Assembly (NCBI GenBank): GCA_031402435.1
Contig: JANNSJ010000049.1
Coordinates: 3,133-67,132, forward strand
DNA length: 64,000 nt
Reading direction: 5' to 3'
From: Bacteroidota bacterium
Lineage (GTDB): Bacteria > Bacteroidota > Ignavibacteria > UBA10030 > UBA6906
This document shows, in pieces, positions 3,012 through 55,084 of this stretch. The stretch's first letter is position 1; each line of letters opens with the position of its first letter. Both the position numbers and the translations under genes were made by a program. Under the pieces are notes generated by a model. It did not search any database and was not told the DNA's origin. It was given only the letters and a program-made list of their open reading frames with translations.

Positions 3012-3030
3012 AAAGATTAACGACGCGTAC

Positions 3031-4737
3031 ATGCGCAACGCACTGATTCTCGCTCTTCTCGTTACACTTCTCCTCGGCGGACAAACGCCTTCGCCAATCC
3101 AGCAAATGACATTCCAACACGACCTCGATGCGCTCACCAAACGTGGTTTCACCTACCGTATGCTCGACAATGATCTGATTGAATTCACTGATCCAATGAG
3201 TGGTGAGAAGCGAATCAAGAGTTTGCGTGAGCCGAGCGAAGCAACGATTCGATCGTGGGCTGCACAGCGCGGCATACCGATACTTGAGATTGACCCGAAT
3301 ACGATTGACACAAACAAATACACAGGATGGTTCACGTATTGGGGCATGGTACCGCTTTCGAATGATGCCGGAATGCCATTGATTATTGATGACCTGAACC
3401 ATAACGGTAGGCCTGAAGTATGGGGGCTATACAGAGACTCTGGTCAAATTGCAAGCAAAGTCTATGAAGTAGATTCAAATGGAGTGTCTTCCCTCGTGCA
3501 TGAGTTCGTCCCTCGAATGGGATCGGCATTTCAAATAACAGATGTCGATAGAGATTCACTCAAGGAAATCAATTACACGTATGGAGATTCAGCATACAAC
3601 TTTGAACAGTCGTCTTTTCAGGATCTACCGACTCATCGTCAATTCGCATTTGCTGAATACGAATACTCGGGAACAGGAATTGTGACAAGGGTCGGAATCA
3701 GAAATCTTGACAAAGATAAATCTGCTGATTTCCTATATCGGGGATCAATCAGAGATAGTATGGGCAACCCTGTACTAGGAACATTTGTTGCCGAATTTAA
3801 TGATAGCATGCATAATTTTCAGAAGGTGTGGACGACAAATCTAAGTTCTTTTGAGTCCGCTATTGGGGGATATGAGGCAAATGATTTTGATGCAGATGGG
3901 CGAGAGGATTTCGCCGCTTCAGACATTTTCGGCAATGTGTTCGTGGTTGAAAACACAGGCGACAACGCCTATGCAATCATGTGGAGAGATACCGTTCCTT
4001 TTTCAAACGCCTTTTATCAAGGCTCAGGAGACATTGATAACGATGGAAGGCCAGAATTGTTCATAGGGGCATCTGTAAATGGGAACTGGACAACAATGTT
4101 CGAAGCCGATAGTGATAATTCTTATTCACCAAAACTCCTTATTCACCTACTCTCCGGCGGGGGTTTTGATAAGCCACAATATCTGGCCACAGATGTTGAT
4201 GGTGACGGAATACCTGAATTGACTATATGTTCGGGAGCAGATATATATATGTTCAAATCAAATGCAGATAACCAATACTCTCTTTGGTATCTCAAGCGTG
4301 AGAATGCGCGCGATGGAATTCAGTTCTACGACTTCAACAAGGACGGACGCAAAGATTTCATTGTGAGTAAGGCCGTTTATGTGGACCCACCAGGATATTT
4401 TAGAAACTATGCTGACATTTATGTTGGCACGTCCCTGGTTTCAGTAAATGAGCATGCCAGCCAGGAACTTCCTGAACGGGTAATACTCTATCCTAACTAT
4501 CCCAATCCCTTCAATCCAACAACATCCATCAGCTACGATCTGCCAGCTAGCGCAAACGTAAGTCTGAAAGTGCACGATCTGCTTGGCAGGGAAGTGGCAA
4601 CACTCGTTGATGGGTTTGTAGAAGCTGGCCATCATAACGAGACTCTGAATGCCGCACACCTTGCAAGCGGCGTGTACTTCTTTCGAATTCGGGCTGGCGG
4701 CTTTGTCCAGACAAAGAAACTGCTCCTGTTGCGGTAA
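3031..4737 (+). CDS. FG-GAP/VCBS repeat protein with T9SS C-terminal sorting domain
   Basis: Signal peptide MRNALILALLVTLLLGG. FG-GAP-like DxDGxxD repeats (DADGREDF, DNDGRPEL, DVDGDGIPEL, NKDGRKDF). C-terminal about 80 aa (YPNPFNPTTSISYDL...GVYFFRIRAGGFVQTKKLLLLR) is typical of a Por/T9SS sorting domain. The start is more likely at 3031 than 2998. Confidence 0.8.
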   Translation: MRNALILALLVTLLLGGQTPSPIQQMTFQHDLDALTKRGFTYRMLDNDLIEFTDPMSGEKRIKSLREPSEATIRSWAAQRGIPILEIDPNTIDTNKYTGWFTYWGMVPLSNDAGMPLIIDDLNHNGRPEVWGLYRDSGQIASKVYEVDSNGVSSLVHEFVPRMGSAFQITDVDRDSLKEINYTYGDSAYNFEQSSFQDLPTHRQFAFAEYEYSGTGIVTRVGIRNLDKDKSADFLYRGSIRDSMGNPVLGTFVAEFNDSMHNFQKVWTTNLSSFESAIGGYEANDFDADGREDFAASDIFGNVFVVENTGDNAYAIMWRDTVPFSNAFYQGSGDIDNDGRPELFIGASVNGNWTTMFEADSDNSYSPKLLIHLLSGGGFDKPQYLATDVDGDGIPELTICSGADIYMFKSNADNQYSLWYLKRENARDGIQFYDFNKDGRKDFIVSKAVYVDPPGYFRNYADIYVGTSLVSVNEHASQELPERVILYPNYPNPFNPTTSISYDLPASANVSLKVHDLLGREVATLVDGFVEAGHHNETLNAAHLASGVYFFRIRAGGFVQTKKLLLLR

Positions 4738-7852: not shown

Positions 7853-9373
7853 ATGAAGACACGTACGATCAAGAAAGTCCTGATTGCCAATCGTGGCGAG
7901 ATTGCCGTTCGCATTATCCGTTCATGCAAGGAGATGGGAATCAAGACGGTTGCTGTCTACTCAGATGTTGACCGCACGATGCCGCACGTCCTCATGGCTG
8001 ACGAAGCGTATCCAATTGGACTGGCGCCTTCACGTGAGAGCTATCTCGTCATCGACAACATTATTGGAGCGGCAAAACAATCCGGAGCGGATGCAATTCA
8101 CCCGGGCTACGGGTTTCTCTCAGAGCGAGCGGAGTTTGCCGAACGTGTGATCAAGGAAGGACTCATCTTCATTGGTCCGCTCCCTGAATCGATCCGCGCA
8201 ATGGGAGACAAAACGGCGGCGCGCAAACTCGTAAGCAAAGCCAACGTACCCACGGTTCCTGGAACTCCCGACGCAATCGGTTCCGAAGATGAGGCAAAGG
8301 CGTTTTGCAAGTCGGCGGGATTTCCTGTGTTGATCAAAGCTGCTGCCGGTGGCGGTGGCAAGGGAATGCGCGTCGTTCATAAAATGGATGAGTTGTCATC
8401 TGCATTTCAGGGTGCAAAGTCCGAAGCGGAGAATGCGTTTGGAGATTCCCGCGTGTATCTCGAAAAGTATCTTGAACAGCCGCGCCATATCGAGTTCCAG
8501 ATTCTTGCCGATCAATATGGTAACACGATCCATCTCGGTGAGCGTGAATGTTCAATCCAACGTCGTCACCAGAAACTCATCGAAGAAACCCCGTCTGTCA
8601 TCGTTGATGATGCTCTCCGTGCGAAGATGGGGGAGACCGCTGTCAATGCAGCGAAGGCATGTGGATATCACAATGCCGGAACCATTGAATTCCTCGTTGA
8701 TAAAAACAGGAACTTCTACTTCCTTGAAATGAACACGAGGCTTCAGGTCGAACATCCCATTACCGAATTGCGAACCGGGATTGATCTTGTCGCGGCGCAG
8801 CTTCGCATAGCAATGGGTGAAAAGCTTCCGTGGTCGCAGAAGGACATTACGTTTCGCGGCCATGCCATCGAATGTCGCATCTGTGCTGAAGATCCGGAGA
8901 ACAATTATCTTCCTTCGACGGGTGTCATCTCTCATCTCCGTCCGGCATTAGGAGTCGGTGTCCGTGAAGATCGGGGAATCGAGCAGGGTGGAGAAGTCTC
9001 GGTATACTATGACCCAATGCTGTCCAAACTGATCTGTTGGGGAGCGACGAGAATCGAAGCAATCGAACGGATGAAGAGAGCGTTGCGTGAATATCAGTTG
9101 CTTGGCGTGAAGACGAACATCCCGTTGCATCTATTTGTACTTGAGCATCCCAATTTTCTTAGCGGCGAGTTTGACACACACTTCCTGCAGAATCATTTCA
9201 CGCCAGAGAAACTTCCTCATGCTATTGAAACAGAACAAATTGCTGCTGCCGTTGTTTGTGCTATGAAGCATCACACGAACTCTGCTAACAGAAGCCCATC
9301 CAGCGAGGCAAACGGATATACACCCAGCAAATGGAAGGCACAACGTACGGACAACATGAGAGGTGATACATGA
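7853..9373 (+). CDS. accC: Biotin carboxylase subunit (acetyl-/acyl-CoA carboxylase AccC type)
   Basis: 506 aa. [19 protein letters not shown]-grasp motifs, [14 protein letters not shown]. Confidence 0.9.
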
Positions 9374-12436: not shown

Positions 12437-13513
12437 CTATGTTGTGGACGCAAGAATGATCATTGCAACCAGATACAGAATCAACAAAATTCCAATAGCA
12501 GTGAATATCGAACTTTTTTGTTCTTTCCTGGACCTGAAATCAACAAATGGGATCATCAACCATAACAATGAAGCAAGTCCAACTACACCGTTGACAAGCA
12601 ACTCACCATTGATGCCAACTACACTGGACGGGACAATCCTGAGCGTTTGATACAAAGGCAAAAAATACCATTCAGGTTTGATACCAACCGGGGCAGACGC
12701 CAACGGATCAGCTTTGTCGCCTATGCTCCATGGATACATGGTGGCGAGAGTCAACAGTGCAATAAATCCCAGACACCATGAAATCAAATCACGATAAAGA
12801 AAGTTTGGAAAGAAAGTCAACGGCTTCCTTGCCTCCTTAATCCCAACTGGAATACTTGATCCTAGAACCTGATTAAGAATAACGTGTAAACTTATTATTA
12901 CAATAGTGAGTAAAGGTAAAATGATAATGTGAATTGAATACATCCTCGTTAGGGTCTCAGCACCGATCTCCTCGCCACCTTTTAATAGCCCAACCCCGTA
13001 GCTTCCGATCAATGGCATTGTCTTCGGAACTTCCGTTCCGATGAGTGTGGCAAAGTATGCCATGGTATCCCATGGGAGCAAATAGCCAGTGAAGCCAAAC
13101 CCAAGAACGAGAAACAGCAGCAACACACCGGTCACCCACATGAGCTCTCTGGGTTTTCTATACGCTTTCATCAGGAACGCGCTGAACATGTGAATGAACA
13201 ACATTGCAATCATCAGATTTGCTGACCACGAGTGAAGTGATCTGATGAGCCAGCCGTATTCAACCTGCGTAATGATGAGCTTGACGCTTTCGTAAGCGTG
13301 TTCAGGTGTAGGCTTATAATATAGGGACAAAAGAATCCCAGTGACAAGCTGAACCACAAAGAAAAACAAAGTAAGTCCGCCAAAGTAATACCACATCGAA
13401 TGCTTATGTTGCGGGACGGTCTTCTTGGAAAGGTATTCCTTCACGGCATCCAGTGGAAGTCGTTCGTTGAGCCAGACATACACTTTGGCAGAATATCCGG
13501 AAGGTAAATTCAT
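12437..13513 (-). CDS. petB: Cytochrome b subunit of the menaquinol:cytochrome c reductase (fused b6/subunit-IV type)
   Basis: 358 aa. Heme-ligand helices, PEWY motif (GIKPEWYFLPLYQ). Confidence 0.9.
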   Translation of the reverse strand: MNLPSGYSAKVYVWLNERLPLDAVKEYLSKKTVPQHKHSMWYYFGGLTLFFFVVQLVTGILLSLYYKPTPEHAYESVKLIITQVEYGWLIRSLHSWSANLMIAMLFIHMFSAFLMKAYRKPRELMWVTGVLLLFLVLGFGFTGYLLPWDTMAYFATLIGTEVPKTMPLIGSYGVGLLKGGEEIGAETLTRMYSIHIIILPLLTIVIISLHVILNQVLGSSIPVGIKEARKPLTFFPNFLYRDLISWCLGFIALLTLATMYPWSIGDKADPLASAPVGIKPEWYFLPLYQTLRIVPSSVVGINGELLVNGVVGLASLLWLMIPFVDFRSRKEQKSSIFTAIGILLILYLVAMIILASTT

Positions 13514-13520
13514 GCGAGGT

Positions 13521-13979
13521 TTATACCTTGGTTACGAGAACGGATGATTCCTCGATTGTTACCTTGAGTGGCAACAGAGGTCTGGGCGCAGGACCGGCAA
13601 TGTTCTTTCCGTTCATATCAAATTGGCTGCCGTGACAGTTGCAATCAAAATGTGGAAGGCCCTCATCTCCTTTGAATTGCACAACACATCCAAGGTGAGT
13701 GCATCGGGCAGAAAATGCTTTGAACTGTCCTCCCATCGTGTGAACAATAATTACCGGATCTTTGTTGAACCGAACAATCTTTGCAGAGTTTTCTGCAATG
13801 TCAGAGACCATCGCAACCTTCATTGTTTCCCGAACAATGTCAGAGTCCTTGACAGGCGATAGGAATTTCGTGACCACAGTTCCGAAAGGCACCACCGTCA
13901 ATACGCCCCACACCTTTATGAGGGCCGATAGAAAATCTCTTCGTGTTGCCGGCATTTGTTCGTCGCGCTTAGCCATCAA
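13521..13979 (-). CDS. petC: Rieske [2Fe-2S] iron-sulfur protein
   Basis: CTHLGCV ... CNCHGSQF Rieske boxes. Twin-arginine-like N-terminus (TRRDFL). Confidence 0.9.
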   Translation of the reverse strand: MMAKRDEQMPATRRDFLSALIKVWGVLTVVPFGTVVTKFLSPVKDSDIVRETMKVAMVSDIAENSAKIVRFNKDPVIIVHTMGGQFKAFSARCTHLGCVVQFKGDEGLPHFDCNCHGSQFDMNGKNIAGPAPRPLLPLKVTIEESSVLVTKV

Positions 13980-15745: not shown

Positions 15746-15835
15746 AGCCTGTAGATAGCAAGTTTCTTTGTAACTATCAAGGTTATCACATCCCAAAAAC
15801 AAGAAAGCTCTCGAACCGACCCGAGAGCTTTCGTT

Positions 15836-16210
15836 GTGGAGATGGCGGGAGTCGAACCCGCGTCCGAAGAGAGAACCATCAAAGCCACTACATACATAGT
15901 CTGTCTTTTGAGCTTCACTCCGCTATATCCAACAGACAGGACAACCGCAGAGCAACCCCAATCTTCCCGTTGCCGGGTTCAGAACACGCTGTCGGGGAGC
16001 GCATGTTCCTAGCCTGCCTGAAGTCGGCGCCCCTTTGAGACCCAGCAGGCGAGATCTCTCGAGACGGGCTAGTTAACTATTCTATTAGTTAAGCAGCCAG
16101 TGCGTAGTTGTAGTCTGCACTTAGTGTTTTTCCGTTTTATTAACGTGCAACTCGGAGAGCACGGTATGCGTCTCAGACCATCCCTTCCCCGTCGAATCCA
16201 AGTCATCCCC
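15836..16210 (-). ncRNA. ssrA: tmRNA (ssrA), one-piece
   Basis: Minus strand reads 5'-GGGGATGACTTGGATTCGACGGGGAAGGGATGG... and 3'-...GGACGCGGGTTCGACTCCCGCCATCTCCA (tRNA-like T-arm and acceptor). The internal tag reading frame ends ...GCAGACTACAACTACGCACTGGCTGCTTAA (ADYNYALAA*). Confidence 0.9.
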
Positions 16211-19061: not shown

Positions 19062-19134
19062 GTGCACCCACCAGGACTCGAACCTGGAACCCACTGATTA
19101 AGAGTCAGTTGCTCTACCAATTGAGCCATGGGTG
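19062..19134 (-). tRNA. tRNA-Lys (anticodon CUU)
   Basis: Minus strand: gcaccca acceptor, D-arm tggctcaattggtagagca, anticodon stem actga/tcagt with loop cuCUUaa, T-arm ccaggttcgagtcctgg, 3' acceptor tgggtgc. Confidence 0.85.
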
Positions 19135-19151
19135 CGCGAGTACGCTCTCTC

Positions 19152-29270: not shown

Positions 29271-29488
29271 CTCAGAAACTTCCATTCTGCCAACGCATGC
29301 CTAACATACACACATTCTGTACGCACTTTCCGATTGCCCTTTTCACCATGAGCCTGATCTTTGACTTGATGGATCCTCTTACTCAACGACGATAAAGTTC
29401 AGAGCGTGAATTGCATTTCTTGCTTCATCACTTGCAATCCCACTTCTATTTTGGAGGACTTCAACCCGCTCCTTTCACCCCATCAAAC

Positions 29489-29653
29489 ATGAAAGCTATC
29501 TACCTCGGCCTTGCTACTGTCTTGGTATCCTCATTTGGACTGGCGCCTGGCATGGCGGTGAGTTGGTTTACACGTTTGGCGTGGGTGTGCAAGCTTTGCA
29601 CCGATGAAAAGTCGAAGAATCTTATTTGTATTGACCATGGTAATCATAAATAG
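29489..29653 (+). CDS. Possible small hypothetical membrane/secreted peptide (54 aa, CxxC...C)
   Basis: MKAIYLGLATVLVSSFGLAPGMAVSWFTRLAWVCKLCTDEKSKNLICIDHGNHK. Followed by a strong terminator. No clear RBS. Confidence 0.25.
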   Translation: MKAIYLGLATVLVSSFGLAPGMAVSWFTRLAWVCKLCTDEKSKNLICIDHGNHK

Positions 29654-29679
29654 AACAAGCGCTTAGGGGCGTATCCTCA

Positions 29680-29711
29680 AACAAAAGCCCATCATTGTTT
29701 TGATGGGCTTT
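29680..29711. terminator. Bidirectional Rho-independent terminator between the small ORF (+) and ccmF (-)
   Basis: Perfect hairpin caaaagcccatca-ttgttt-tgatgggcttttg flanked by A/T runs. Confidence 0.7.
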
Positions 29712-29751
29712 TGTTGAAGTTGCTTGCTACTCTATCTCTAGGATTAGGAAC

Positions 29752-32055
29752 TTACTCCTCGCTGGCCGTTTGCAATTTCAATCTCGATTCTTGGGCTCTT
29801 CGAACGATTGTTACTATGAACCCAACAACGAGGATGATCACCCCGTTCCAAACCAGGTTGATGTACGGTTTGATACTTGCCTCGACTACCAGTACATCCA
29901 CCTGGGGCTTGCCACTATCCTGTGCTCCCGCCCTCAAGTCGCTATAGCCTAATTCAACGCTCGAATTTTCCTTTGCCTCGCGATCAGGATGCATTCCGAT
30001 AATAACGAACTCAGCCTTGTCGAGATAACGGGCAGGTTCGTCTGTTTGCTCTCCGTTACTTATGAGCTTTGCCGGTGTAACAACGGTCGGCTTACCCGAT
30101 TTCTCAACAATTTGGAGTTTGGCCCCAATTCGAACATTGGCCCCTTCGAGCATTGCTGCCTTTTCCATCACAGGGAAATCGAAGTCAATGAACGTAACTA
30201 CGAGGTCGCCAATATTCTTTGTTTCGCCCCTCTTTAATGTCACGGCTTTTTGAGCAGCCTTTGTAGAATTGCCTGCCTGCTCAAGAGATAGCGGCGCAAC
30301 ATAGAAATCCTTACTGATAAGATTAATGATGTCAGGATTCCTCATGAGCCCCTTAGTATACTCGCTATAGTACATTGTTGGCGAGACAACACGCTCAGGC
30401 TGGTTTGGTCCCTCAACGCGAACATCAAAGCCGAACTTCTCTCCATCCAATGGCTTGTAGCTCACATACGTAAGTCTGTAGCCAAGCGCTTCCACGGTTT
30501 CACCCTGCGGAAGGGACAGCGTTACTTTATCATCATATTTGGAAGAGGCAACAAAGCCAAGGAACATTACCGCCAAACCAATGTGAGCTATTGACCCGCC
30601 GGCAAACTTCGGGCTTCCGCGAATGATGCGCCAGCCAACAAGAAGATTGGAAAAGAGAGCGAATGCTGCACCAAACACAAACAATGCCACCAGCACCTCA
30701 TGCACGCCGATAAAAACCAATACGATGGTCGTTACAAGGGACAAAGCAACCGGCAATATCAAGTTCTTCCGTAGTTCCTTCGTATCTGACTTGGTCCACC
30801 AAAGGAGCTGGGCAAGGCCGCAGAGAACTCCGATGGCAATCCCCAAAGGCAGCGTAGTGGTTGAGTAATATGAAATGTCAACTGCTGTTGTCTTTCCTTG
30901 AAGAATAGTCGTGATCAGCGGTGATGATGTCCCAACGGAGATAAAGAGAGCGGCGCATACGATTGCTGCCGACCCGAGAAACAGCGCAAATTCCCTCGAA
31001 AAGTAGTCGTGCTGCAAAGAGCCTTTTGGCATGTCCTTCCGCCGGAAGACCAGTAAGCCCAGACCAAGTCCACTGAAGAGAACTAGCATACCAACGAGCA
31101 ACCAATATGCCCACATACCAGGATCAACAAACGAATGAACCGATGTTTCCCCGAGAACACCGCTTCGGGTTAGAAACGTCGAGTACACAACAAATATGAA
31201 ACACATCATGCTCAAGACAAGGTTTGTCTTGATAAACGCACCACTCTTTCGTTGAGAAAGAGTGGTATGTATTGTTGCCACTCCGATCAACCATGGAACA
31301 AGCGAGGAGTTCTCAACGGGATCCCAGCCCCAGTAGCCGCCCCACCCCAGTGTTTCATATGCCCAGAAGCCACCCATCATGATGGCGGTGCCGAGCACAA
31401 CACAGCCGTAGACAAGCCAGGGGGTCGCAGGCTTGATCCAGTTGATGTAATCCCGCTTCATGAGAGCTGCGACAGCATATGCATACGGAACCCCCATCGC
31501 CGCGAAGCCGCTAAACATGACCTGTGGGTGAATCACCATCCAATAATTCTGAAGCAGCGGGTTAAGTCCCCGCCCATTCGGAGGAACGAATCCGGCATTC
31601 ACCTGTCCCGACCAGGTTTCCCACACATACGCGAATGGATTCTTGACGAGCAACATGAGGAGAAGAAATGTCTCAATCAATCCATACGCTGTCATTACTT
31701 GCGGCTCATAACCCTTCTTCGCAGAATCACGCATCAAGAATATGCCAATAAGCGAAGTGAAGAGAGTCCATAGCATGAAACTCCCTTCTTGACCGGCATA
31801 GAACGTAGAGATCAGAAGCGGGAGAGAAAGTTCACGGCCACTGTAACTCCAGACGTATGTATACTGAAATTGATGCGTAAGAATGAGATAGAGGAGAACG
31901 GAGGATATCACCATAACGGTGACAACAGTAGCGTGGAAAAAGAGGCGCGCCCATCTGAGCAAACGTTCGTCATTGCGTACATGAGACTGAAAAAACAACA
32001 CAACGGAAAGCAGGCTTGTAATGAATGCCAGCTTTACAAGTATTGAACCAATCAT
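29752..32055 (-). CDS. ccmF: Cytochrome c-type biogenesis heme lyase subunit CcmF
   Basis: 767 aa, polytopic. WWD domain WGGYWGWDPVENSSLVPW. No ccmG or ccmH follows. Confidence 0.85.
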   Translation of the reverse strand: MIGSILVKLAFITSLLSVVLFFQSHVRNDERLLRWARLFFHATVVTVMVISSVLLYLILTHQFQYTYVWSYSGRELSLPLLISTFYAGQEGSFMLWTLFTSLIGIFLMRDSAKKGYEPQVMTAYGLIETFLLLMLLVKNPFAYVWETWSGQVNAGFVPPNGRGLNPLLQNYWMVIHPQVMFSGFAAMGVPYAYAVAALMKRDYINWIKPATPWLVYGCVVLGTAIMMGGFWAYETLGWGGYWGWDPVENSSLVPWLIGVATIHTTLSQRKSGAFIKTNLVLSMMCFIFVVYSTFLTRSGVLGETSVHSFVDPGMWAYWLLVGMLVLFSGLGLGLLVFRRKDMPKGSLQHDYFSREFALFLGSAAIVCAALFISVGTSSPLITTILQGKTTAVDISYYSTTTLPLGIAIGVLCGLAQLLWWTKSDTKELRKNLILPVALSLVTTIVLVFIGVHEVLVALFVFGAAFALFSNLLVGWRIIRGSPKFAGGSIAHIGLAVMFLGFVASSKYDDKVTLSLPQGETVEALGYRLTYVSYKPLDGEKFGFDVRVEGPNQPERVVSPTMYYSEYTKGLMRNPDIINLISKDFYVAPLSLEQAGNSTKAAQKAVTLKRGETKNIGDLVVTFIDFDFPVMEKAAMLEGANVRIGAKLQIVEKSGKPTVVTPAKLISNGEQTDEPARYLDKAEFVIIGMHPDREAKENSSVELGYSDLRAGAQDSGKPQVDVLVVEASIKPYINLVWNGVIILVVGFIVTIVRRAQESRLKLQTASEE

Positions 32056-32094
32056 TGATCCCTCTTTGAGAAAGAACGTTCCAGCAACACAACT

Positions 32095-32490
32095 CTACGT
32101 GGACTTTTTGACATCCTCACCTTGTGCTTCATACTTCGATGGACACTTCGTCAGCACTTCGGTCGCGTGGAAGTATCCCTCATCGGCATTGTACCGGCCT
32201 TTGGCAACGACACTCACTGCCATCTCAAAATTGTTCGGGGCTGCTCCGTCAAGAACAACTTTACATTCCTTCCCAAGCTCGTCAACAAGGAAAAAGGTGA
32301 ACTGTGTTGTCTTCGCATCGAACGAAGACGGCTTCTCTTTATTCCACTGTCCCTTCAACTGGACTTTCTTGTGCTTGCTGATTGCTCCGCTGACATCGGT
32401 GTATTCAATATTGCTTTGCAAGAACGATACCGACCCGAAGATGATAAAGAGAACAACAACAACTGCGGCGACAATTACCTTGGGTTTCAT
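32095..32490 (-). CDS. ccmE: Cytochrome c maturation heme chaperone CcmE, CXXXY variant
   Basis: N-terminal TM anchor plus OB-fold. C-terminal ATEVLTKCPSKYE aligns with E. coli AKEVLAKHDENYT, so Cys replaces the heme-binding His130. Confidence 0.8.
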   Translation of the reverse strand: MKPKVIVAAVVVVLFIIFGSVSFLQSNIEYTDVSGAISKHKKVQLKGQWNKEKPSSFDAKTTQFTFFLVDELGKECKVVLDGAAPNNFEMAVSVVAKGRYNADEGYFHATEVLTKCPSKYEAQGEDVKKST

Positions 32491-32493
32491 GCG

Positions 32494-32637
32494 TCACTCC
32501 TTCTCTTGTTGTGAGCGTTTCTCCAACTTCTTCAACCTGCCATCGATACGAAACAGATACAAATAAATCCCAAACCACACTGTCAACGCGATGCCAAGAA
32601 CAATATAGAGCGAGTTCTGATTCAGGAATTCAAACAA
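32494..32637 (-). CDS. ccmD: Heme exporter protein CcmD (small, single TM)
   Basis: Not in the ORF track. The minus-strand frame reads (TTG start) MFEFLNQNSLYIVLGIALTVWFGIYLYLFRIDGRLKKLEKRSQQEKE*, lying between ccmC and ccmE. Confidence 0.55.
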   Translation of the reverse strand: MFEFLNQNSLYIVLGIALTVWFGIYLYLFRIDGRLKKLEKRSQQEKE

Positions 32638-32655
32638 TCCGTATTACTCCTCTCA

Positions 32656-33333
32656 CTATGAGTGTTTTGTTTCCAAGCGAACTGTGCGAATGTGAAGGTT
32701 CCACATCCAGATAAATAGGCCGGTAAAGCCTGTCAATGAAGCAAGAAAGATCACAAGCATAGTCGCGTTCATATGCACTTTGCCCTGCACATTAAGAATA
32801 GGCTCCGGGTGCAGACTTGCAAGAATTCGGGGCATGATAAACATGAAGAATGGCATCGTCACAGCTCCGATGATCGAGTACACTGCCGAGAGTGTAGCCC
32901 GTTTTTCTTCAATGTCCACAGCAGAACGAAGTGCAAAGTACGCTCCATAAATAAGGAGAAGCACAAAGATCGATGTTTGTCGCGGATCCCAATTCCAGTA
33001 AGTCCCCCAACTAAACTTCGCCCAAATTGCACCGGTAACAGTTGCCAGGATGCAAAACAGCAATCCAAGTCCCGCAGCGGATGCCGACGTAATATCGTCG
33101 TCCGGATTCTTCTTGCGCAAGTACTTGATTCCGTAAATCATACTCATTACAAATGCAACGGAAGCCAACCAGGCAGTGGGAACGTGAAAGAACATGATGC
33201 GGGCTTTTTCTTCCAGCCCTGGGATTGTTGGCAATTCAAACCAGTGTTGTGGCTGTGCAGACATGGGAAGGCTGAGCCCGAGCACAATCACGGCCGTCAT
33301 CCAGAGGCCAATCACAATCTTCCAGGTCATCAA
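32656..33333 (-). CDS. ccmC: Heme exporter protein CcmC
   Basis: WWD motif WGTYWNWDPRQTS. 6 TM helices. Confidence 0.9.
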   Translation of the reverse strand: MMTWKIVIGLWMTAVIVLGLSLPMSAQPQHWFELPTIPGLEEKARIMFFHVPTAWLASVAFVMSMIYGIKYLRKKNPDDDITSASAAGLGLLFCILATVTGAIWAKFSWGTYWNWDPRQTSIFVLLLIYGAYFALRSAVDIEEKRATLSAVYSIIGAVTMPFFMFIMPRILASLHPEPILNVQGKVHMNATMLVIFLASLTGFTGLFIWMWNLHIRTVRLETKHS

Positions 33334-34028
33334 TCTTTCCAGATGTAGTCAAAGAGAATATACGACACAGCAACAACTGCAACAATATATGAAACTAATA
33401 TGTTGAATTCACCTAATGCCTCTTCAAAAAAGGCTCCTTCTGTTGCAAGTCGGGTTCCGTTAATGACAGTTAACAATAGGGGCAATAATATGGGAAACGC
33501 CAAAACCGGATAGAGAGTTCCTTTGGTATTGGCACGGGCGATGATCGCCGCAATGATCGTGGAGGATGCGGCAAACCCGATACTCCCAAGTGCAACCGTA
33601 ACAACAAAGATGCTGTACGTCTTGATCACGAACTCACTGATGAACACCGAGTACAATACGACGACAAGGGTATTCAGTCCGATAACGAGGGCCAGGTTAA
33701 AGCAGAGTTTACCGAGGAGCACTGCCGTCGGAGAAGCAACAAGTTGAAGTGTCATCGACGTACCGCGTTCTTCTTCAGCAACAAACGTGCGGCTCAATCC
33801 CGACATTGCCGCGAAGAACACTGCAACCCACAACATGCCGGAGAGTGCATTCAACGAGGCCCCTTCTGTCCCGAGGGCGAACACGATAATGGAGATGGTG
33901 GTAATAACGAACATGACCAGGGCGCTGATTGCATAGCGTGTCCGCAACTCGGACTTCCAATCCTTCGCCAGAATTGCGATCGTTGCCTGCCACAGCGATG
34001 CCCTGGGAACCTGACGCTCAGCGGTCAA
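33330..34028 (-). CDS. ccmB: Heme exporter permease CcmB
   Basis: 232 aa, 6 TM. Operon position between ccmA and ccmC, with 4-nt and 11-nt overlaps. Confidence 0.8.
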   Translation of the reverse strand: MTAERQVPRASLWQATIAILAKDWKSELRTRYAISALVMFVITTISIIVFALGTEGASLNALSGMLWVAVFFAAMSGLSRTFVAEEERGTSMTLQLVASPTAVLLGKLCFNLALVIGLNTLVVVLYSVFISEFVIKTYSIFVVTVALGSIGFAASSTIIAAIIARANTKGTLYPVLAFPILLPLLLTVINGTRLATEGAFFEEALGEFNILVSYIVAVVAVSYILFDYIWKD

Positions 34029-34635
34029 GATTCACCCTTTGGTCATGTCGATCAACATCGGTCGTATCGTTCGTTGCCACAACGAGAATGCCCTTCTTGT
34101 AATGTTCATCCATGATGGTCTTCACCATCTCGATGCCATTGGAATCCAGGTTCGCCATGGGTTCATCGAGAATAAGAATAGGTGGTTCATGGATCAGAGC
34201 AAAGGCATACTTTACGCGTTGTTTCATTCCGGAGGAAAATGTTCGGACCGGATCATCAAGACGGCCTTTCAGTTGAAGCCGATCGAGAAGCGGTTGAATC
34301 CTCGACGTGAGACTTTTCATCCCACGGACCGCAAGTACAAATTGCAGGTTCTCTCGAGGTGAGAACTCATCGTACATTTGCAGGTACGGTGAAACAAGCC
34401 CGATCATAGAATGAAGATTTGACATTGTATCTCTTCCATCCCATAGAGCTTTGACTTCCCCGGCTGTTGGCGTGAGAACGCCGCTCAACATTTTGATAAG
34501 AGTCGATTTACCTGAGCCATTCCGGCCGGTGATCAGCAGTGTGGTCCTGGGCTGCAACGAGAACGAAATGTTCTCGAAGATCACTCTCCTGTTGAACACC
34601 TTCTTGAGACTATGCCCGCTGAATTCTATTGTCAT
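34018..34635 (-). CDS. ccmA: Heme exporter ABC ATP-binding protein CcmA
   Basis: Walker A GRNGSGKST, signature FSSGMKQRV, Walker B ILILDEP. Confidence 0.85.
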   Translation of the reverse strand: MTIEFSGHSLKKVFNRRVIFENISFSLQPRTTLLITGRNGSGKSTLIKMLSGVLTPTAGEVKALWDGRDTMSNLHSMIGLVSPYLQMYDEFSPRENLQFVLAVRGMKSLTSRIQPLLDRLQLKGRLDDPVRTFSSGMKQRVKYAFALIHEPPILILDEPMANLDSNGIEMVKTIMDEHYKKGILVVATNDTTDVDRHDQRVNLDR

Positions 34636-36314
34636 TTTCGTATGACAGCGATCTTGCCGGTAGTCAACTGGTCTTGAACATCAAGTACAAAGAGATACAC
34701 ACCGCTTTGGACGATTTCGCCGTTGCTCGTTTTTCCGTTCCAGACAAACGCCTGTTTGCCCAATCGTGTCTCCGACGTAAGCGTTGAAGTGAAAACCAAA
34801 TCCATGCTTCCTGTAAAAACGGAAAGCGTCCCCTCAATTGGGCTGGGTGCATTGATCGGAAAGAACATGACGGACGTACCAACGATAAATGGATTTGGGA
34901 ATGGAATCCCTATGGTAACAGGTGCGGAGCCTACACCAACTCCCACAACGTCCCACGTATACCAGTTCGTAACATCCACCACATCAAGCTTGAAAAAAAT
35001 GCCGATGGACGTTGCTCTATATGAATCATCAACTCGAAGTGTGTTCAATAGATATGTGTAAGGAAACTGCGTAGACGAATTCCCGATACCAGCATTGAAG
35101 TTAATATTTGATAGCGCAAGCGTGAGCGTGTCCTGCAAGCCAATCACTTGATAATATCTTGCTGAAAGGGCAGCCAATGACCCTCCCATTGCCCTGGAGG
35201 GAGGGGCAAAAGCTATAGGCGATTGAACTATCAAGGGGTAGGAATACCCTTCGGGATAGTAACGAGAGGTGTCTGCTCTCGATTCTGTAAAGAAGTTCCA
35301 CAAGGTCCACTCGGCAAACGCCTCCCGGAATGTTGAGTGGGACAGTTGAAGTGCATTATCCATTGCCTGAAGCGGACGCACATTGCGTATTTCTTCCCAG
35401 GCTGTTCGCATAACATCGCGTCCATATCTTTTTTCAACGAAGCTCCCCCAGATGCCACGACTGTACATGATGAAGCTGTTGGATGTAAACGGGGTTTCAG
35501 GGTGCCAGAATTGTCCCTGACTTGATCGAAGGTACTGATAGTAGTCATTCACATTCGTATACACAACATCTTCCATCCACACCGACGTAATCTCATAGAA
35601 GTACGAATCGCCGGTCCAGTATCCGTAGTTACCGATCTGGACGGCATGATGAAGCTCATGTGCAATTGTAACCCGAAGAGCAGGCATGCCCTTGTTGCTG
35701 TCGGGAAAGACAAAACTGAAGTCGTTGTCAATCTCCAGAAACGTGGTAAACGTTCCGCCGTCCGGTTTGCTGTTGATCGGCGTTTCAGGAGTCGTGAGGC
35801 CATAGTACGAACTGCCAAGTTCCCCAATGTAAATATCGTATTGGGTCCCGCCACCATTTCCGAAATCCTGAGGAGGCTGCAAGTATCCGAGGGTATTCGT
35901 CTGAACGGATGTTGTGTACTGAAGGATTGCTGCAACGGAATCGACATATTCGCGAACAGTTCCGGGAATTCGGTGGTACAGAGAGTCAAGCATTGCCGGG
36001 GCATTGGCGCCGACGGTGTCAAAGTGAATTCTAAACCCACCAACAAGAATACTGGTGTCTAGTGATGGTCGGAGGAGCAAAGATGAAAGCGACGATTGCA
36101 GCTCAGGCGGCAAGGACATGCGGTCGTGAAGTGCCGCTGACAACGTCGGCAGGCCACATTTATCCGATAAGTGATCTCCTTCGCTGGCCCCTTGTGCTTC
36201 ACGGGAGAGCATACGATAGCTCTCGAGGCGGGTTCTTGTTGGCTGCTCTGATCCGGGAGAAGGCATCGCAATACAGACGATGAACGCCACCAGATATGAA
36301 ACACGTAGAGTCAT
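34632..36314 (-). CDS. Putative secreted HExxH zinc-metallopeptidase-like protein with T9SS C-terminal sorting domain
   Basis: 560 aa. N-terminal signal/TM. HELHHAVQ (HExxH) motif. C-terminal about 80 aa (FPNPFIVGTSV...GVYLFVLDVQDQLTTGKIAVIRK) is T9SS-CTD-like. ATGA overlap with ccmA. Confidence 0.65.
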   Translation of the reverse strand: MTLRVSYLVAFIVCIAMPSPGSEQPTRTRLESYRMLSREAQGASEGDHLSDKCGLPTLSAALHDRMSLPPELQSSLSSLLLRPSLDTSILVGGFRIHFDTVGANAPAMLDSLYHRIPGTVREYVDSVAAILQYTTSVQTNTLGYLQPPQDFGNGGGTQYDIYIGELGSSYYGLTTPETPINSKPDGGTFTTFLEIDNDFSFVFPDSNKGMPALRVTIAHELHHAVQIGNYGYWTGDSYFYEITSVWMEDVVYTNVNDYYQYLRSSQGQFWHPETPFTSNSFIMYSRGIWGSFVEKRYGRDVMRTAWEEIRNVRPLQAMDNALQLSHSTFREAFAEWTLWNFFTESRADTSRYYPEGYSYPLIVQSPIAFAPPSRAMGGSLAALSARYYQVIGLQDTLTLALSNINFNAGIGNSSTQFPYTYLLNTLRVDDSYRATSIGIFFKLDVVDVTNWYTWDVVGVGVGSAPVTIGIPFPNPFIVGTSVMFFPINAPSPIEGTLSVFTGSMDLVFTSTLTSETRLGKQAFVWNGKTSNGEIVQSGVYLFVLDVQDQLTTGKIAVIRK

Positions 36315-39843: not shown

Positions 39844-40914
39844 TTATCGAGCGCTCTGGTGTGCAAGAAATTGCGTTGATAATGCTTTTATCCTTTCAAG
39901 TATGAGATCAGAGTCCCGCCCGTTCCTCACAAACTCAGGCTGAAATCCGGCTTGCACGGGAAGACATGCGTAGGAAGATATTGTCGTGCCGTGAGCATCC
40001 TTCGTGAGCGTCGCTGCAAAGGCGAAGCTGCGTTGCGTCCAGAACCGGTCGGGTTGACGAAACACGAAATTGCCGAGTGAATGAACGATGTACTTCCCTT
40101 GGAATTCCTGGACGCCATACGGGACATGTGGGTGATGTCCCAGAAACAGGTCAGCGCCACCAGCAATGATCTGCTTTGCAAAAGTTTTCGTCCGGCGAGT
40201 GGGGCGATCGGCATATTCTTCTCCACCGTGATAGCTGACGACGATAAAGTCCACCGAATCCCGGACAGCCCGAATTCCGGGAAGGAGCTTTGTTGTGTCC
40301 GCTTCGGCAACATACCGTTTCCACATGGAGTCCTCAAAATTCATCACGTCCGTGCACGCGAAAAATGCAATCCGCATACCGTTCCGGTTAATGTACACTG
40401 GTGAAAAGAGATTCAACGTATCATCTGCCGTCCCGACATGGGACACGTGCACGTCATCAAGATATTGGATCGTCTCACGAAGGGCCTTCACGCCATAATC
40501 CAGCGCATGATTGTTCGCCGTCGACACGATTGTCACGCCCCCTTTTCGCAATGCATTTGCTCCAGCTGGCGGACCGGTAAAGATCAGATTATTGCGGGGA
40601 TGCTGTGTTTCCCCATCCTGATCAGAGAGTTGCGATTCAAGATTCGCGAACACAATATCATACCGGGCAAACGAATCTCGAACTGCTTTGAAGGGATACA
40701 GCGTGTCGCCTCGAATGATCTCCTGTCCAACACCTCTTCCCAGATTGATATCCCCGACCGCAAGAAGCCTCACAGTTGTAGTGTGTTGAGAGCCTTGAAG
40801 ATGTATTACACTTTTTGGGAGTGATGCCGGCTGGGTTTGGTCCGTTCGCAAGACAGCCATACTCAATACCAACACACTCATCAACCCACAACCCGCCAGC
40901 CATTGCATGGCCAT
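39844..40914 (-). CDS. CapA-family metallophosphatase (poly-gamma-glutamate synthesis CapA-like), secreted
   Basis: Signal peptide. VGDINLGRGVG ... HHPHV. Confidence 0.75.
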   Translation of the reverse strand: MAMQWLAGCGLMSVLVLSMAVLRTDQTQPASLPKSVIHLQGSQHTTTVRLLAVGDINLGRGVGQEIIRGDTLYPFKAVRDSFARYDIVFANLESQLSDQDGETQHPRNNLIFTGPPAGANALRKGGVTIVSTANNHALDYGVKALRETIQYLDDVHVSHVGTADDTLNLFSPVYINRNGMRIAFFACTDVMNFEDSMWKRYVAEADTTKLLPGIRAVRDSVDFIVVSYHGGEEYADRPTRRTKTFAKQIIAGGADLFLGHHPHVPYGVQEFQGKYIVHSLGNFVFRQPDRFWTQRSFAFAATLTKDAHGTTISSYACLPVQAGFQPEFVRNGRDSDLILERIKALSTQFLAHQSAR

Positions 40915-51496: not shown

Positions 51497-52561
51497 TTAA
51501 TTGGTGAAGATGGTCTTTGAAAAATATCTTGATAATTTGTGAACCCCGCGCACTACATCGTCGCCTTCCCCACCGGACAACTCCCGCGCACGCCAGCCTT
51601 CAATCGCAACCGGTATCAGCCGATATGCAACATTGTTGCCGTGCAACCTGACCTCGAACAACGCAGTGTTGTATGTATCACGGCTATTCCCTCCAAATAC
51701 AAAATTGCCCAATGAATATACTATGACTCCTGATTTGTACTTCTCAATCCCTTGCAATACATGCGGGTGATGTCCGATGATGAGATCTGCTCCGGCATCA
51801 ATCACCTCGTGGGCAAACTCAATCTGCTCTTGATCTGGAATTGTTGCTTTCTCTGTTCCCCAGTGCAAGTTCACTACTATATACGGAGCAGGATTCTGCA
51901 GTTTCAGCTTTGCAATATCAGCTTGAATTGTTTCAATATCCCTGTCCGCCACGCCCGGCTTCCTGGATGTTGCTTTAGGGGCTTCACTCCCTCCATAGTA
52001 CGCGAGCAAGGCAACACTCTTGTCGTTTGTACTCACAACAACCGGCGTACGGGCTTCGGTTCTATTGCGCCCGGCACCAACGTGGCGTATTCCCACTGAA
52101 TCAAGATACGAAATTGTATCGAAAAGTCCGACCCTGCCGAAATCGTAAATATGATTATTGGCAATACTGACCACATCTATTCCTGCACCAGTCAATGCGG
52201 AGAGAAACCGCGGATGCATCCGGAAATTATAGGGCTTGTCAACGCGTTTGCCTCGCGTTGTTACAGGACATTCTAGGTTCACCATCGCAATGTCTGCTGT
52301 CTTCAACAACTCGAAGGTGTTGAATGCCAGATTCACAGAGTCACCCGCATCGTCCTCATAGTGACCGGCAAGCAAACAGTCGCCACCAAAACGAAGAAGA
52401 ACACTATCGCCGCTAATGGGGGAGCTATGTGGTGAGGTTTGGATAGCATCAATCTCTGGTTTTAGCGGAAAACTCAGAGCATACGGCAAGCTCGAGGTCA
52501 TCAGTGTAGTGAGACAGTAAAGAAGGCGGAATAGAGAATTTACCAAAGAGGGGTTTTGCAT
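51497..52561 (-). CDS. CapA-family metallophosphatase (second paralog), secreted
   Basis: Calcineurin-like metallophosphatase motifs (GDD, GNHE-like NNH, GHHPHV). Confidence 0.75.
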   Translation of the reverse strand: MQNPSLVNSLFRLLYCLTTLMTSSLPYALSFPLKPEIDAIQTSPHSSPISGDSVLLRFGGDCLLAGHYEDDAGDSVNLAFNTFELLKTADIAMVNLECPVTTRGKRVDKPYNFRMHPRFLSALTGAGIDVVSIANNHIYDFGRVGLFDTISYLDSVGIRHVGAGRNRTEARTPVVVSTNDKSVALLAYYGGSEAPKATSRKPGVADRDIETIQADIAKLKLQNPAPYIVVNLHWGTEKATIPDQEQIEFAHEVIDAGADLIIGHHPHVLQGIEKYKSGVIVYSLGNFVFGGNSRDTYNTALFEVRLHGNNVAYRLIPVAIEGWRARELSGGEGDDVVRGVHKLSRYFSKTIFTN

Positions 52562-53231: not shown

Positions 53232-53789
53232 CTAGTTGAAAATGTATCCCACACGGGCCGCAACGCATGTTGCATTGGCAACGCCAAGCAAGCGAACTGA
53301 TACATCGAACTTGCTGGCTTCGAAACCAACTTGTGGCTGGTAGGTGAAGTCTGAGCCAGAAACAGAACCTCCGCCAACTTGAACACCAAAAAATGTTTGA
53401 CTCGGAATGGTGTACGAACTGAAAATAAGCCCTATTTCAAAAGCACCATATGGTCTGAAAGAGCTTGCTGCCGGTGAAAAATAATAGCGTGCACCAACAA
53501 CAACTGGAATCATGCTCCATTTTCCTCCATTGATTGTTACACCTGCAACTGTTTGATCCTTACCAGAAAACGTCAAATAGCCAGCGGTTGCAGTAAAACT
53601 CACCATGTCATTGAATAAATAGTATCCACGTCCAGTTCCCCCGATGCCAATACTCTGAGTATTGCTGAACGCGGTTGTCATCGGAATTGCAACATCCGCA
53701 CCGATCCCAAATGAAATCTTCCCCTGCGCAAAAGAATTGCTCGTAGCCATCAACATAATTGCTGCAACCGTTAGCAAGAGCTTCTTCAT
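53232..53789 (-). CDS. Small outer-membrane beta-barrel protein, paralog 2
   Basis: Signal peptide MKKLLLTVAAIMLMATSNSFA. Beta-barrel pattern. Confidence 0.65.
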   Translation of the reverse strand: MKKLLLTVAAIMLMATSNSFAQGKISFGIGADVAIPMTTAFSNTQSIGIGGTGRGYYLFNDMVSFTATAGYLTFSGKDQTVAGVTINGGKWSMIPVVVGARYYFSPAASSFRPYGAFEIGLIFSSYTIPSQTFFGVQVGGGSVSGSDFTYQPQVGFEASKFDVSVRLLGVANATCVAARVGYIFN

Positions 53790-53940
53790 TGTGTTACTCC
53801 TTTAAGGTGATAGAATGTTTTGTTGTTGAGGTGCTGCACAAAACTGGCCTAAGTATAAACAATTCCTGTGCATTTGTCAAGAAATTCTAGCTTGCGACAA
53901 TGAAATGTGGAAGCAGTTGTTGGAACAACTCGAAATAACG

Positions 53941-54561
53941 CTATCCGCCAAAAGTCACGCCTACTGTCAAGGGAATCAGACCTGTGCTGCTTCCTTCAGT
54001 GAATATAAGAACATACTTGAAATCGAAATACAGCTTCACCGCACTGCTCATTGCATATTCAGCACCGGCTCCGAAGTTTATCCCAAACTTGGTTTGGCTG
54101 CCAAGGCCGGTTTTTAAATCAAACGATTGACCGCCAACCTCAATCTTACCGTCGCTGATGCTAAGGATATGAATGCCCAACCCAAGAATACCATACGGAG
54201 TCACGCTTGAGCCGGTGGGAATCTTCCCCAACCCATTCACGGTGATGCTGAACGCGCTGGCATTCAGACCAGATACTGTTGCTCCTTGTGCATTAGGATT
54301 GGCAGCCACGATGGCCTGCACGAGTTTGTCCTTATTTGAACCATAGATACTGTAATCCAAATTCAATCTCAAACCAATGTACTTCATGATACCTAAATCA
54401 CCATGAGCCCCGAATAGGAACCCTGTGCTATAGAAATCGCTAACCCCCTGCGGGAATGAGGAGAGTGAGAAACCAGCGTGGCCACCACCTCCAAACTTTA
54501 CCTCAGACCTTGCTTCGAGTGAACAAATCAACAATAAGAAAACAAAAACACATTGTTTCAT
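53941..54561 (-). CDS. Small outer-membrane beta-barrel protein, paralog 3
   Basis: Signal peptide MKQCVFVFLLLICSLEA. Beta-barrel pattern. Confidence 0.65.
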   Translation of the reverse strand: MKQCVFVFLLLICSLEARSEVKFGGGGHAGFSLSSFPQGVSDFYSTGFLFGAHGDLGIMKYIGLRLNLDYSIYGSNKDKLVQAIVAANPNAQGATVSGLNASAFSITVNGLGKIPTGSSVTPYGILGLGIHILSISDGKIEVGGQSFDLKTGLGSQTKFGINFGAGAEYAMSSAVKLYFDFKYVLIFTEGSSTGLIPLTVGVTFGG

Positions 54562-54601
54562 GGTACCTCCAGAATTAAGATGGATAAGTTGGTTGCTGAT
54601 A

Positions 54602-55084
54602 CTAGACTTCATAACGAATACCGGAACGAATGAGGATGATGAAACCTGTTGTACCAGTTACGAACACCGGACCAAGCTGAAGTTCTGCAGGGATGTAAAG
54701 ATTTCTTGCAATTTCAAACTGTGCCCCTCCTCCAAAGCGGATGTCAAAATACGGCCCGCCTGTAAAAAAATACAACCCGAATCCTGCGTCTGCGTAAGGT
54801 TTTACCTTGGAACCAGGGATTGAGAAGTAGTACTTGAAGTAGTTTGCCCATTCAATGGGAGTACCTGTTTGCGTGTTGATGCCGAGCTCAGTTCCAACAG
54901 CAGGCCCTTTGCCAATCAATACTTCTCCCATTGGACTAATATGAAAGCCTGCTGCTGACAAACCACCTCCGCTGGCAATGGAAATGCCCATGTTTCCGCC
55001 CACGGACCAGCGTATCTGAGACTTTGCGGTCATGGGTAGGAAAACAATGATCAAACAGAGCAACGACTTGCCAAGACGATTCAT
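54602..55084 (-). CDS. Small outer-membrane beta-barrel protein, paralog 4
   Basis: Signal peptide MNRLGKSLLCLIIVFLPMTAKSQ. Beta-barrel pattern. Confidence 0.65.
   Translation of the reverse strand: MNRLGKSLLCLIIVFLPMTAKSQIRWSVGGNMGISIASGGGLSAAGFHISPMGEVLIGKGPAVGTELGINTQTGTPIEWANYFKYYFSIPGSKVKPYADAGFGLYFFTGGPYFDIRFGGGAQFEIARNLYIPAELQLGPVFVTGTTGFIILIRSGIRYEV

Follow-up and report, generated by a model that had tools for sequence, protein, structure and literature searches.

What cytochrome c maturation system is encoded when an otherwise complete set of System I genes has a cysteine in place of the haem-binding histidine of CcmE and no genes for CcmG and CcmH? This question is raised by the ccm (cytochrome c maturation) operon on contig JANNSJ010000049.1 of a Bacteroidota bacterium, which was analysed within a stretch of 64,000 nt, the part of the genome visible to us and referred to below as the window. 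Systems with a Cys-type CcmE and without CcmH were described from genomes in 2006 (Allen et al., FEBS Lett 580:4827) and are named System I*. From the observed gene content, motif positions, conservation and synteny, the region is very probably an operon for a functional System I*, inherited vertically in an uncultured bacterium of the Ignavibacteria type from the FCB (Fibrobacteres-Chlorobi-Bacteroidetes) group.

Organization of the ccm operon

Six intact open reading frames (ORFs), all on the minus strand between 29752 and 34635, follow each other in the order ccmA, ccmB, ccmC, ccmD, ccmE and ccmF (Table 1). All six products exceeded the gathering scores of their Pfam families. NCBIfam models returned the same names, with all scores under the curated cutoffs except that for CcmD_alt. 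Since the low equivalog scores reflect divergence from the proteobacterial systems in which the mechanism was worked out, the operon is a divergent, non-proteobacterial version of the system. The gene order and strand proposed in the first-pass annotation were recovered, but its description of the junctions as overlaps of 4-11 nt applies only to ccmA/ccmB (11 nt) and ccmB/ccmC (4 nt). The three remaining junctions are gaps of 18 nt (ccmC-ccmD), 3 nt (ccmD-ccmE) and 39 nt (ccmE-ccmF). Upstream, a gene for a DUF6055 protein overlaps the start of ccmA by 4 nt and a gene for an FG-GAP repeat protein overlaps the DUF6055 gene by 4 nt. Therefore, the transcription unit probably begins further upstream than ccmA, and both genes are probably co-transcribed with ccm.

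At the other end of the operon, a hairpin starting 33 nt past the stop codon of ccmF was predicted by RNA folding. It contains a perfect 12-bp core stem (AAAAGCCCATCA / TGATGGGCTTTT) inside a predicted 19-bp helix and is flanked by an A-tract on the 5' side and a T-tract on the 3' side. The fold has an energy of -27.1 kcal/mol (z = -9.2), and none of 200 shuffled sequences was equally stable. A scan for promoter and terminator consensus sequences did not list this element, though direct folding was unambiguous. The strong bidirectional terminator that had been claimed straight after ccmF is thereby corroborated.

Table 1. Features of the ccm locus and of the genes upstream of it. Positions are those of the window.
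Feature	Position	Strand	Evidence
Bidirectional intrinsic terminator hairpin, convergent ccmF / DUF2231 relic	29675-29719	.	RNA folding
ccmF, haem lyase / holocytochrome c synthase, 767 aa	29752-32055	-	Pfam PF01578 + CcmF_C PF16327
Second, duplicated periplasmic beta-domain of CcmF, residues 593-735	29851-30279	-	hhalign internal-repeat test
ccmE, Cys-type haem chaperone, 131 aa	32095-32490	-	Pfam CcmE PF03100 6.7e-15, 55.7 bits
ccmD, CcmD_alt family, 47 aa	32494-32637	-	Pfam PF20077 25.9 bits (cutoff 23.5); TIGR04391 26.4 bits (cutoff 24)
ccmC, haem-handling WWD protein, 225 aa	32656-33333	-	Pfam Cytochrom_C_asm PF01578 6.9e-25
ccmB, ABC membrane subunit, 232 aa	33330-34028	-	Pfam CcmB PF03379 1.8e-20, 73.7 bits (cutoff 24.9)
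ccmA, ABC-transporter ATPase subunit, 205 aa, Walker A GRNGSGKST	34018-34635	-	Pfam ABC_tran 3e-28
DUF6055 protein, zincin HELHH motif, weak FlgD_ig (C-terminal domain of type IX secretion type)	34632-36314	-	Pfam
FG-GAP repeat protein, 736 aa	36311-38521	-	Pfam FG-GAP_3

The cysteine of CcmE

CcmE consists of an N-terminal transmembrane (TM) anchor (residues 1-29), an OB-fold domain and the C-terminal motif C116-P-S-K-Y120, and ends with ...HATEVLTKCPSKYEAQGEDVKKST. The codon for Cys116 is TGT at 32143-32145. Proteins of E. coli K-12 served as reference for pairwise MAFFT alignment and for tblastn searches. In the alignment with CcmE of this strain, C116 is placed opposite H130 and Y120 opposite Y134 (HATEVLTKCPSKYE over LAKEVLAKHDENYT). 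Independent phmmer alignments against PDB sequences gave the same register with CcmE of Shewanella (1J6Q, AKHDENY) and with the Cys-type CcmE of Desulfovibrio vulgaris (2KCT, TKCP). The first-pass annotation had put the cysteine at the position of His130 and suggested alignment with HxxxY and CxxxY sequences; proteins of both types agree with this placement. Several CcmE equivalogs of NCBIfam matched as well, below their cutoffs.

The cysteine is also conserved among relatives. A search of 5.8 billion proteins yielded 871 relatives of CcmE, and LTKCPSKY is invariant in all 120 closest homologues, which are 73-91% identical to the protein in the window. With HMMER, 1.84 billion representatives of clusters at 50% identity were searched exhaustively, and 769 CcmE clusters were detected at E<=1e-3. 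In 144 of the 150 nearest representatives, which are 30-75% identical, the aligned position is Cys, nearly always in KCPSKY; the other six appear to be fragments or to have misaligned ends. For whole genomes, one genome per species from GTDB r232 was scanned for LTKCPSKY and a second, N-terminal pattern. At least 599 matching stretches were obtained, of which 555 were confirmed as CcmE relatives, and at least 555 species-representative genomes thus encode such a protein. The best 80 of the at least 555, designated L001 to L080 and comprising about 20 kb each (about 10 kb on either side of ccmE) with 1247 ORFs altogether, were used as related loci in the comparisons described below.

CcmA, CcmB, CcmC and CcmD

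The haem-delivery module of CcmA, CcmB and CcmC is complete. CcmA reached 122.9 bits with TIGR01189, slightly below the cutoff of 131.6, and was detected by tblastn with its E. coli counterpart (5e-22), while CcmB matched TIGR01190 below cutoff. CcmC, recognized by TIGR01191 (1.7e-34, below the curated cutoff) and by E. coli CcmC in tblastn (3e-14), contains the WWD motif WGTYWNWDPRQT at residues 109-120 and the two His ligands, His50 and His175. The small CcmD has a single TM helix at about residues 8-29, and its gene has a TTG start codon with the ribosome-binding site GAGAGGAG. Similarity to E. coli CcmD was not found. In most of the 80 related loci, a CcmD_alt gene is likewise located between ccmC and ccmE.

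CcmF and its additional domain

Residues 2-591 of CcmF align to CcmF of Thermus thermophilus (6ZMQ, 1.8e-70), with every His and WWD context conserved. The periplasmic histidines P-His1 and P-His2 correspond to H176 and H307, the transmembrane histidines TM-His1 and TM-His2 to H263 and H491, and the WWD motif WGGYWGWDPVEN to residues 238-249; the last TM helix is at about 730-754. With those of CcmC and CcmE, all catalytic residues and motifs of the three proteins are accounted for. E. coli CcmF detected the gene by tblastn (7e-61). The best NCBIfam match was the model of the NrfE subfamily, TIGR03145, with 259 bits (cutoff 927), followed by the general CcmF/NrfE model TIGR00353 with 245 bits.

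CcmF has 647 aa in E. coli and 660 aa in Thermus, and the protein of the window is about 120 residues longer. When residues 497-592 were compared with residues 593-735 by hhalign, using an alignment of 56 sequences from the related loci, similarity was detected with a probability of 94% and an E value of 1e-7. The extra segment 593-735 is therefore a second copy, in tandem, of the canonical periplasmic beta-domain and a trait of the lineage, and it accounts for the length of CcmF. A sequence search of the PDB with the C-terminal 179 residues gave no match. Most related loci encode the long form of about 757-798 aa, and shortened versions of about 677-697 aa are encoded in the otherwise identical operons of L018-L020, L023 and L024. 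This duplicated domain is the sole mildly novel feature of the operon.

A CcmH fused to CcmF was considered for residues 593-735 and ruled out, since the domain has no Cys. It is also quite improbable that the duplication is a compensatory feature that took over the role of CcmH/CcmI in docking apocytochromes. Against this idea are the lack of Cys, the poor sequence conservation of the domain and its shortening in some identical operons, and CcmH-less systems are known to function without it. Compensation for the missing CcmH in System I* was sought in earlier bioinformatic work and not found (PMC3601427).

CcmG, CcmH and cytochrome substrates

Genes for CcmG or CcmH, noted as absent from the operon in the first-pass annotation, were found neither after ccmF nor anywhere else in the 64-kb window by motif scan, Pfam and tblastn. 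Pfam scans covered 40 ORFs of the window, among which ordinary housekeeping genes and no members of the Thioredoxin/Redoxin, CcmH, DsbD/CcdA or ResB families were identified. In the non-overlapping ORF map of the whole window, CXXC occurs in only four proteins, none of them thioredoxin- or CcmH-like, and CXXCH in no protein. Of the 14 ORFs outside the Pfam scans, only the one at 7853-9373 contains CXXC; judging by our own reading of its N-terminal sequence, it presumably specifies a biotin carboxylase. E. coli proteins were used in tblastn at E<=1 for the window and at E<=1e-3 for the 80 related loci. CcmG and CcmH gave no match in either, but the method is insensitive at such distance, as E. 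coli CcmE misses the real ccmE of the window, and the negative results for CcmG and CcmH are therefore based mainly on the motif and Pfam scans. Across the 1247 ORFs of the related loci, no recurring WCxxC or RCxxC protein was detected near the operon.

Some of the more distant related loci contain additional genes. In seven of them, a gene for a lipoprotein of 150-167 aa immediately precedes ccmE or separates ccmB from ccmC (L048, 9472-9969; L054, 9493-9972; L071, 9423-9926; L067, 3671-4123; also L064, L070 and L073). The protein is characterized by the conserved pattern ...ANYLMFEADLP...YRRVLELDP...QIEDIYKSMGxPIP and by weak, sub-threshold matches to TPR families, and may be a CcmI-like accessory protein. 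No homologue is present in the window. In three loci, ccm genes adjoin clusters of multihaem cytochrome genes with up to 17 CXXCH motifs per protein (L048, 3384-9453; L054, 13886-20357; L080, 2214-8726). The adjoining genes are ccmE-ccmF in L048 and L054 and ccmC-ccmE in L080, without ccmABCD immediately upstream, and they may represent a second ccmEF copy dedicated to these cytochromes.

In the window itself, a gene pair for a Rieske iron-sulfur protein (152 aa) and cytochrome b (358 aa) is located at 12437-13979 on the minus strand. No gene for a c1-type protein with CXXCH is adjacent, as in bc complexes of the Chlorobi type.

Comparison with known maturation systems

System I* has been dealt with by Allen in 2006, Goddard in 2010 (J Biol Chem), Stevens in 2011 and Gupta in 2022. 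In a 2011 review (PMC3601427), its carriers were archaea, Deltaproteobacteria, Chloroflexi and Firmicutes, and CPSKY was the majority motif, present in 25 of 36 bacterial genomes. CcmH was found in about one third of System I* bacteria, so that its absence is not a defining trait. The label of a variant System I given to the operon in the first pass was well chosen: in CcmE, CxxxY in the form of CPSKY replaces HxxxY, neither the operon nor the 64 kb contains ccmG or ccmH, and CcmF has the WWD domain with two periplasmic and two transmembrane histidines. Canonical His-type System I does not fit, as Cys occupies the haem position of CcmE and a terminator instead of ccmG/ccmH follows ccmF. Nor does System II (CcsBA/ResBC), since CcmE and CcmB are present and no ResB was found among the scanned ORFs of the window. 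The ccsB model TIGR03144 scored 64 and 49 bits with CcmC and CcmF (cutoff 188), through the shared PF01578 domain.

Among the closest known systems is the bacterial System I* of Desulfovibrio desulfuricans and D. vulgaris, which have a CPSKY-type Cys at the position of His130, CcmD, CcmF with the WWD domain and four conserved His, and an operon without ccmH and ccmG. When expressed in E. coli, the Desulfovibrio operon produced holocytochrome c without CcmG/H, with haem covalently attached to the Cys of CcmE (PMC3601427). The CcmE of the window, known here from sequence alone, is distant from that of D. vulgaris (phmmer with 2KCT, E = 0.0014). Further differences are the CcmD_alt protein, the 767-aa CcmF with its duplicated periplasmic domain, and an FCB host rather than one of the Desulfobacterota. 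A CcmE of the CXXXY type is likewise found in Methanosarcina acetivorans (Gupta, Shalvarjian and Nayak 2022, eLife 11:e76970), where it is needed for haem binding. This archaeon lacks CcmH and CcmI; CcmABC, CcmE and CcmF suffice, and Cys120 of CcmE is required (PMC9084895). In contrast to archaeal Ccm, which has no CcmD, a CcmF split into two genes and scattered ccm genes, the window contains a CcmD_alt gene, a single long CcmF and all genes in one operon. With ccmABCDEFGH of E. coli it shares the order from ccmA to ccmF, the CcmA, CcmB, CcmC, CcmE and CcmF families and the WWD and His motifs. The E. coli system differs by His130 in CcmE, a canonical CcmD of 69 aa, one periplasmic domain in CcmF, and ccmG and ccmH directly after ccmF.

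Distribution and synteny

The best 80 of the at least 555 genomes with a CcmE relative are all metagenome-assembled genomes labelled Ignavibacteria, Ignavibacteriota, Ignavibacteriales, Kryptoniota or generically "Bacteroidota". Among the nearest CcmE clusters, named members include "Candidatus Kapabacteria" and "Bacteroidota", and proteins of these clusters are already annotated by NCBI as "cytochrome c maturation protein CcmE". In CcmE, the closest genome among the matches listed reaches no more than about 79% identity; the window therefore originates from an uncultured member of this group and from no named species.

The usual gene order in the 80 loci is 4HBT thioesterase, FG-GAP, DUF6055, ccmA-B-C-D-E-F and a convergent gene for a PIG-L deacetylase, and it is kept down to about 50% identity in CcmE. 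A convergent DUF2231 gene downstream of ccmABCDEF also belongs to the shared arrangement. In the more distant L063 (Kryptoniota) and L067, ccmABCDEF is retained and the FG-GAP and DUF6055 genes are missing. At 0.48-0.49, the operon has the same GC content as the window as a whole and therefore shows no sign of recent horizontal transfer, and Pfam scans of window ORFs revealed no mobile-element genes flanking it. Taken together, ccmABCDEF with a Cys-type CcmE is the normal, conserved arrangement in bacteria of the Ignavibacteria, Kapabacteria and Kryptonia type, and the operon appears to be inherited vertically within the class rather than recently acquired.

Three expectations of the first-pass annotation have to be revised accordingly. 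The variant was called rare, which is at odds with the invariance of LTKCPSKY in the closest homologues and with the number of species and clusters detected. A full System I was regarded as unexpected here, but it is the conserved syntenic state of this group. A possible horizontal origin was raised, which finds no support in the unremarkable GC content, the kept synteny and the nearest clusters, which belong to other FCB lineages. System II is the usual system in most other Bacteroidota (Bacteroidia) and in Chlorobi. A literature search found no paper explicitly describing System I* in Ignavibacteria and none combining 'Ignavibacterium' with 'ccmE'. In a cultured ignavibacterium, Melioribacter roseus, proteomics has revealed the presence of CcmF (MROS_0623; PMC5492636).

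Neighbouring genes and other features of the window

In front of ccmA, most of the 80 related loci also have the FG-GAP and DUF6055 genes. These two were considered as Ccm accessory factors and rejected, because the unrelated thioesterase and PIG-L genes are equally conserved and because both genes are absent from distant genomes that keep the operon.

The spacer between ccmF and the PIG-L gene contains a decayed gene for a DUF2231 membrane protein at 29297-29607 on the plus strand. Its 32 N-terminal codons (MPNIHTFCTHFPIAL..., 29297-29395) and its C-terminal half (IAFLASS...GAWHGGELVYTFGVGVQ, 29410-29607) are in different frames, and about 120 nt are missing. In L001, L003, L006, L009, L011-L014 and L022, the corresponding position holds intact orthologues of 141-145 aa (PF09990, 1.2e-28). 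Either the gene has become a pseudogene or the assembly is wrong here. Overlapping the relic is a spurious ORF of 80 aa (29411-29653, plus strand), which was examined as a mini-CcmH substitute on account of its CKLC motif. It was dismissed: the 80 loci show no conservation of it, Pfam gave no match, and it is read in the wrong frame relative to the DUF2231 gene. An Rfam scan of the window detected nothing in this spacer and only a tmRNA (RF00023, 168.6 bits, 15834-16210, minus strand) and one tRNA (19063-19135, minus strand).

Elsewhere in the window, an FG-GAP repeat protein with Por_Secre_tail, the C-terminal sorting domain of type IX secretion, is encoded at 2998-4737 on the plus strand. 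Therefore, substrates of type IX secretion are present, consistent with an origin from the FCB group. Paralogous genes were also observed, three in tandem for small outer-membrane beta-barrel proteins (OMP_b-brl; 185, 223 and 160 aa; 53232-55084, minus strand) and two for PGA_cap proteins (39844-40914 and 51497-52561).

Proposed mechanism and alternatives

By homology to the Desulfovibrio and Methanosarcina systems, the chemistry of the pathway and the dispensability of CcmH and CcmG can be proposed. CcmC, with its WWD motif and His50/His175, would present haem at the outer face of the membrane together with CcmD_alt, and haem would be joined covalently to Cys116 of membrane-anchored CcmE, presumably via a thioether bond. 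ATP hydrolysis by the CcmAB ATPase would then release holo-CcmE. With its WWD domain and P-His176/307, CcmF would accept this haem, which a b-haem on TM-His263/491 is thought to keep reduced, and would ligate it to CXXCH of Sec-exported apocytochromes without an operon-encoded CcmH partner. Reduction of the apocytochrome thiols may require no dedicated CcmG/CcmH, as in the tested System I* cases, or may depend on genes located elsewhere.

Several observations weigh against a functional System I* operon. The window lacks a CXXCH substrate protein, so that function is deduced from conservation only. The CcmH-less state applies to 64 kb, and about a third of bacteria with a Cys-type CcmE have CcmH elsewhere (PMC3601427). 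In addition, the Ccm equivalog scores of NCBIfam are below the curated cutoffs, and the insensitivity of tblastn with E. coli proteins leaves the CcmG/H negatives leaning on the motif and Pfam scans. The second of these points leads to the alternative that deserves most attention, a Cys-type System I with partners such as CcmH, a CcmG- or ResA-like thioredoxin, CcdA or CcmI elsewhere in the genome, which would make the operon split rather than streamlined. Besides the occurrence of CcmH in other Cys-CcmE bacteria, it is favoured by the enhancement of activity by CcmI (PMC3601427), by the limited part of the genome inspected and by the TPR-like lipoprotein in or beside the ccm genes of seven distant loci, which indicates that accessory genes vary. 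On the other hand, no partner gene is present within the 64 kb or within about 10 kb around ccmE in 80 related genomes, and the systems of Desulfovibrio and Methanosarcina function without CcmH/CcmG, so that a split operon is possible but rather unlikely.

That the operon represents a specialised second system, an NrfE-like lyase for particular cytochromes beside a System II (CcsBA/ResBC) responsible for the bulk, could be suspected from the best NCBIfam match of CcmF, from the multihaem cytochrome clusters next to ccm genes in three related loci and from the prevalence of System II in Bacteroidia and Chlorobi. The NrfE score is, however, far under its cutoff and nearly equalled by the general model, the haem-delivery set ccmABCDE is complete, the neighbours are housekeeping genes and include neither an NrfA-type nor any other cytochrome gene, and the position of the operon is conserved across the class, which makes such a specialisation improbable. 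Recent transfer from a deltaproteobacterial or archaeal donor of System I* is the least probable explanation and very unlikely indeed. The first descriptions of System I* came from archaea and Desulfovibrio, and ccm genes have moved repeatedly between domains (PMC9084895), but GC content equals that of the flanks, mobile-element genes are not adjacent, relatives down to 50% CcmE identity have the operon in the same place, flanked as here by genes for the thioesterase and PIG-L, and other FCB lineages (such as Kapabacteria and 'Bacteroidota') provide the nearest CcmE clusters.

System I* in the FCB group

With a conserved, vertically inherited System I* operon as the preferred interpretation, FCB bacteria of the Ignavibacteria, Kapabacteria and Kryptonia type appear to use System I* uniformly, and the variant is far commoner than the term "rare" suggests. 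The phyletic extension beyond the 2011 review is a small addition; the class of mechanism is not new, and experiments on it have been done in other systems. These lineages, including the cultured Melioribacter, offer a bacterial setting with complete ccmABCDEF for two questions: by what means haem leaves a CcmE to which it is thioether-linked, and how CcmF acts when CcmH is missing.

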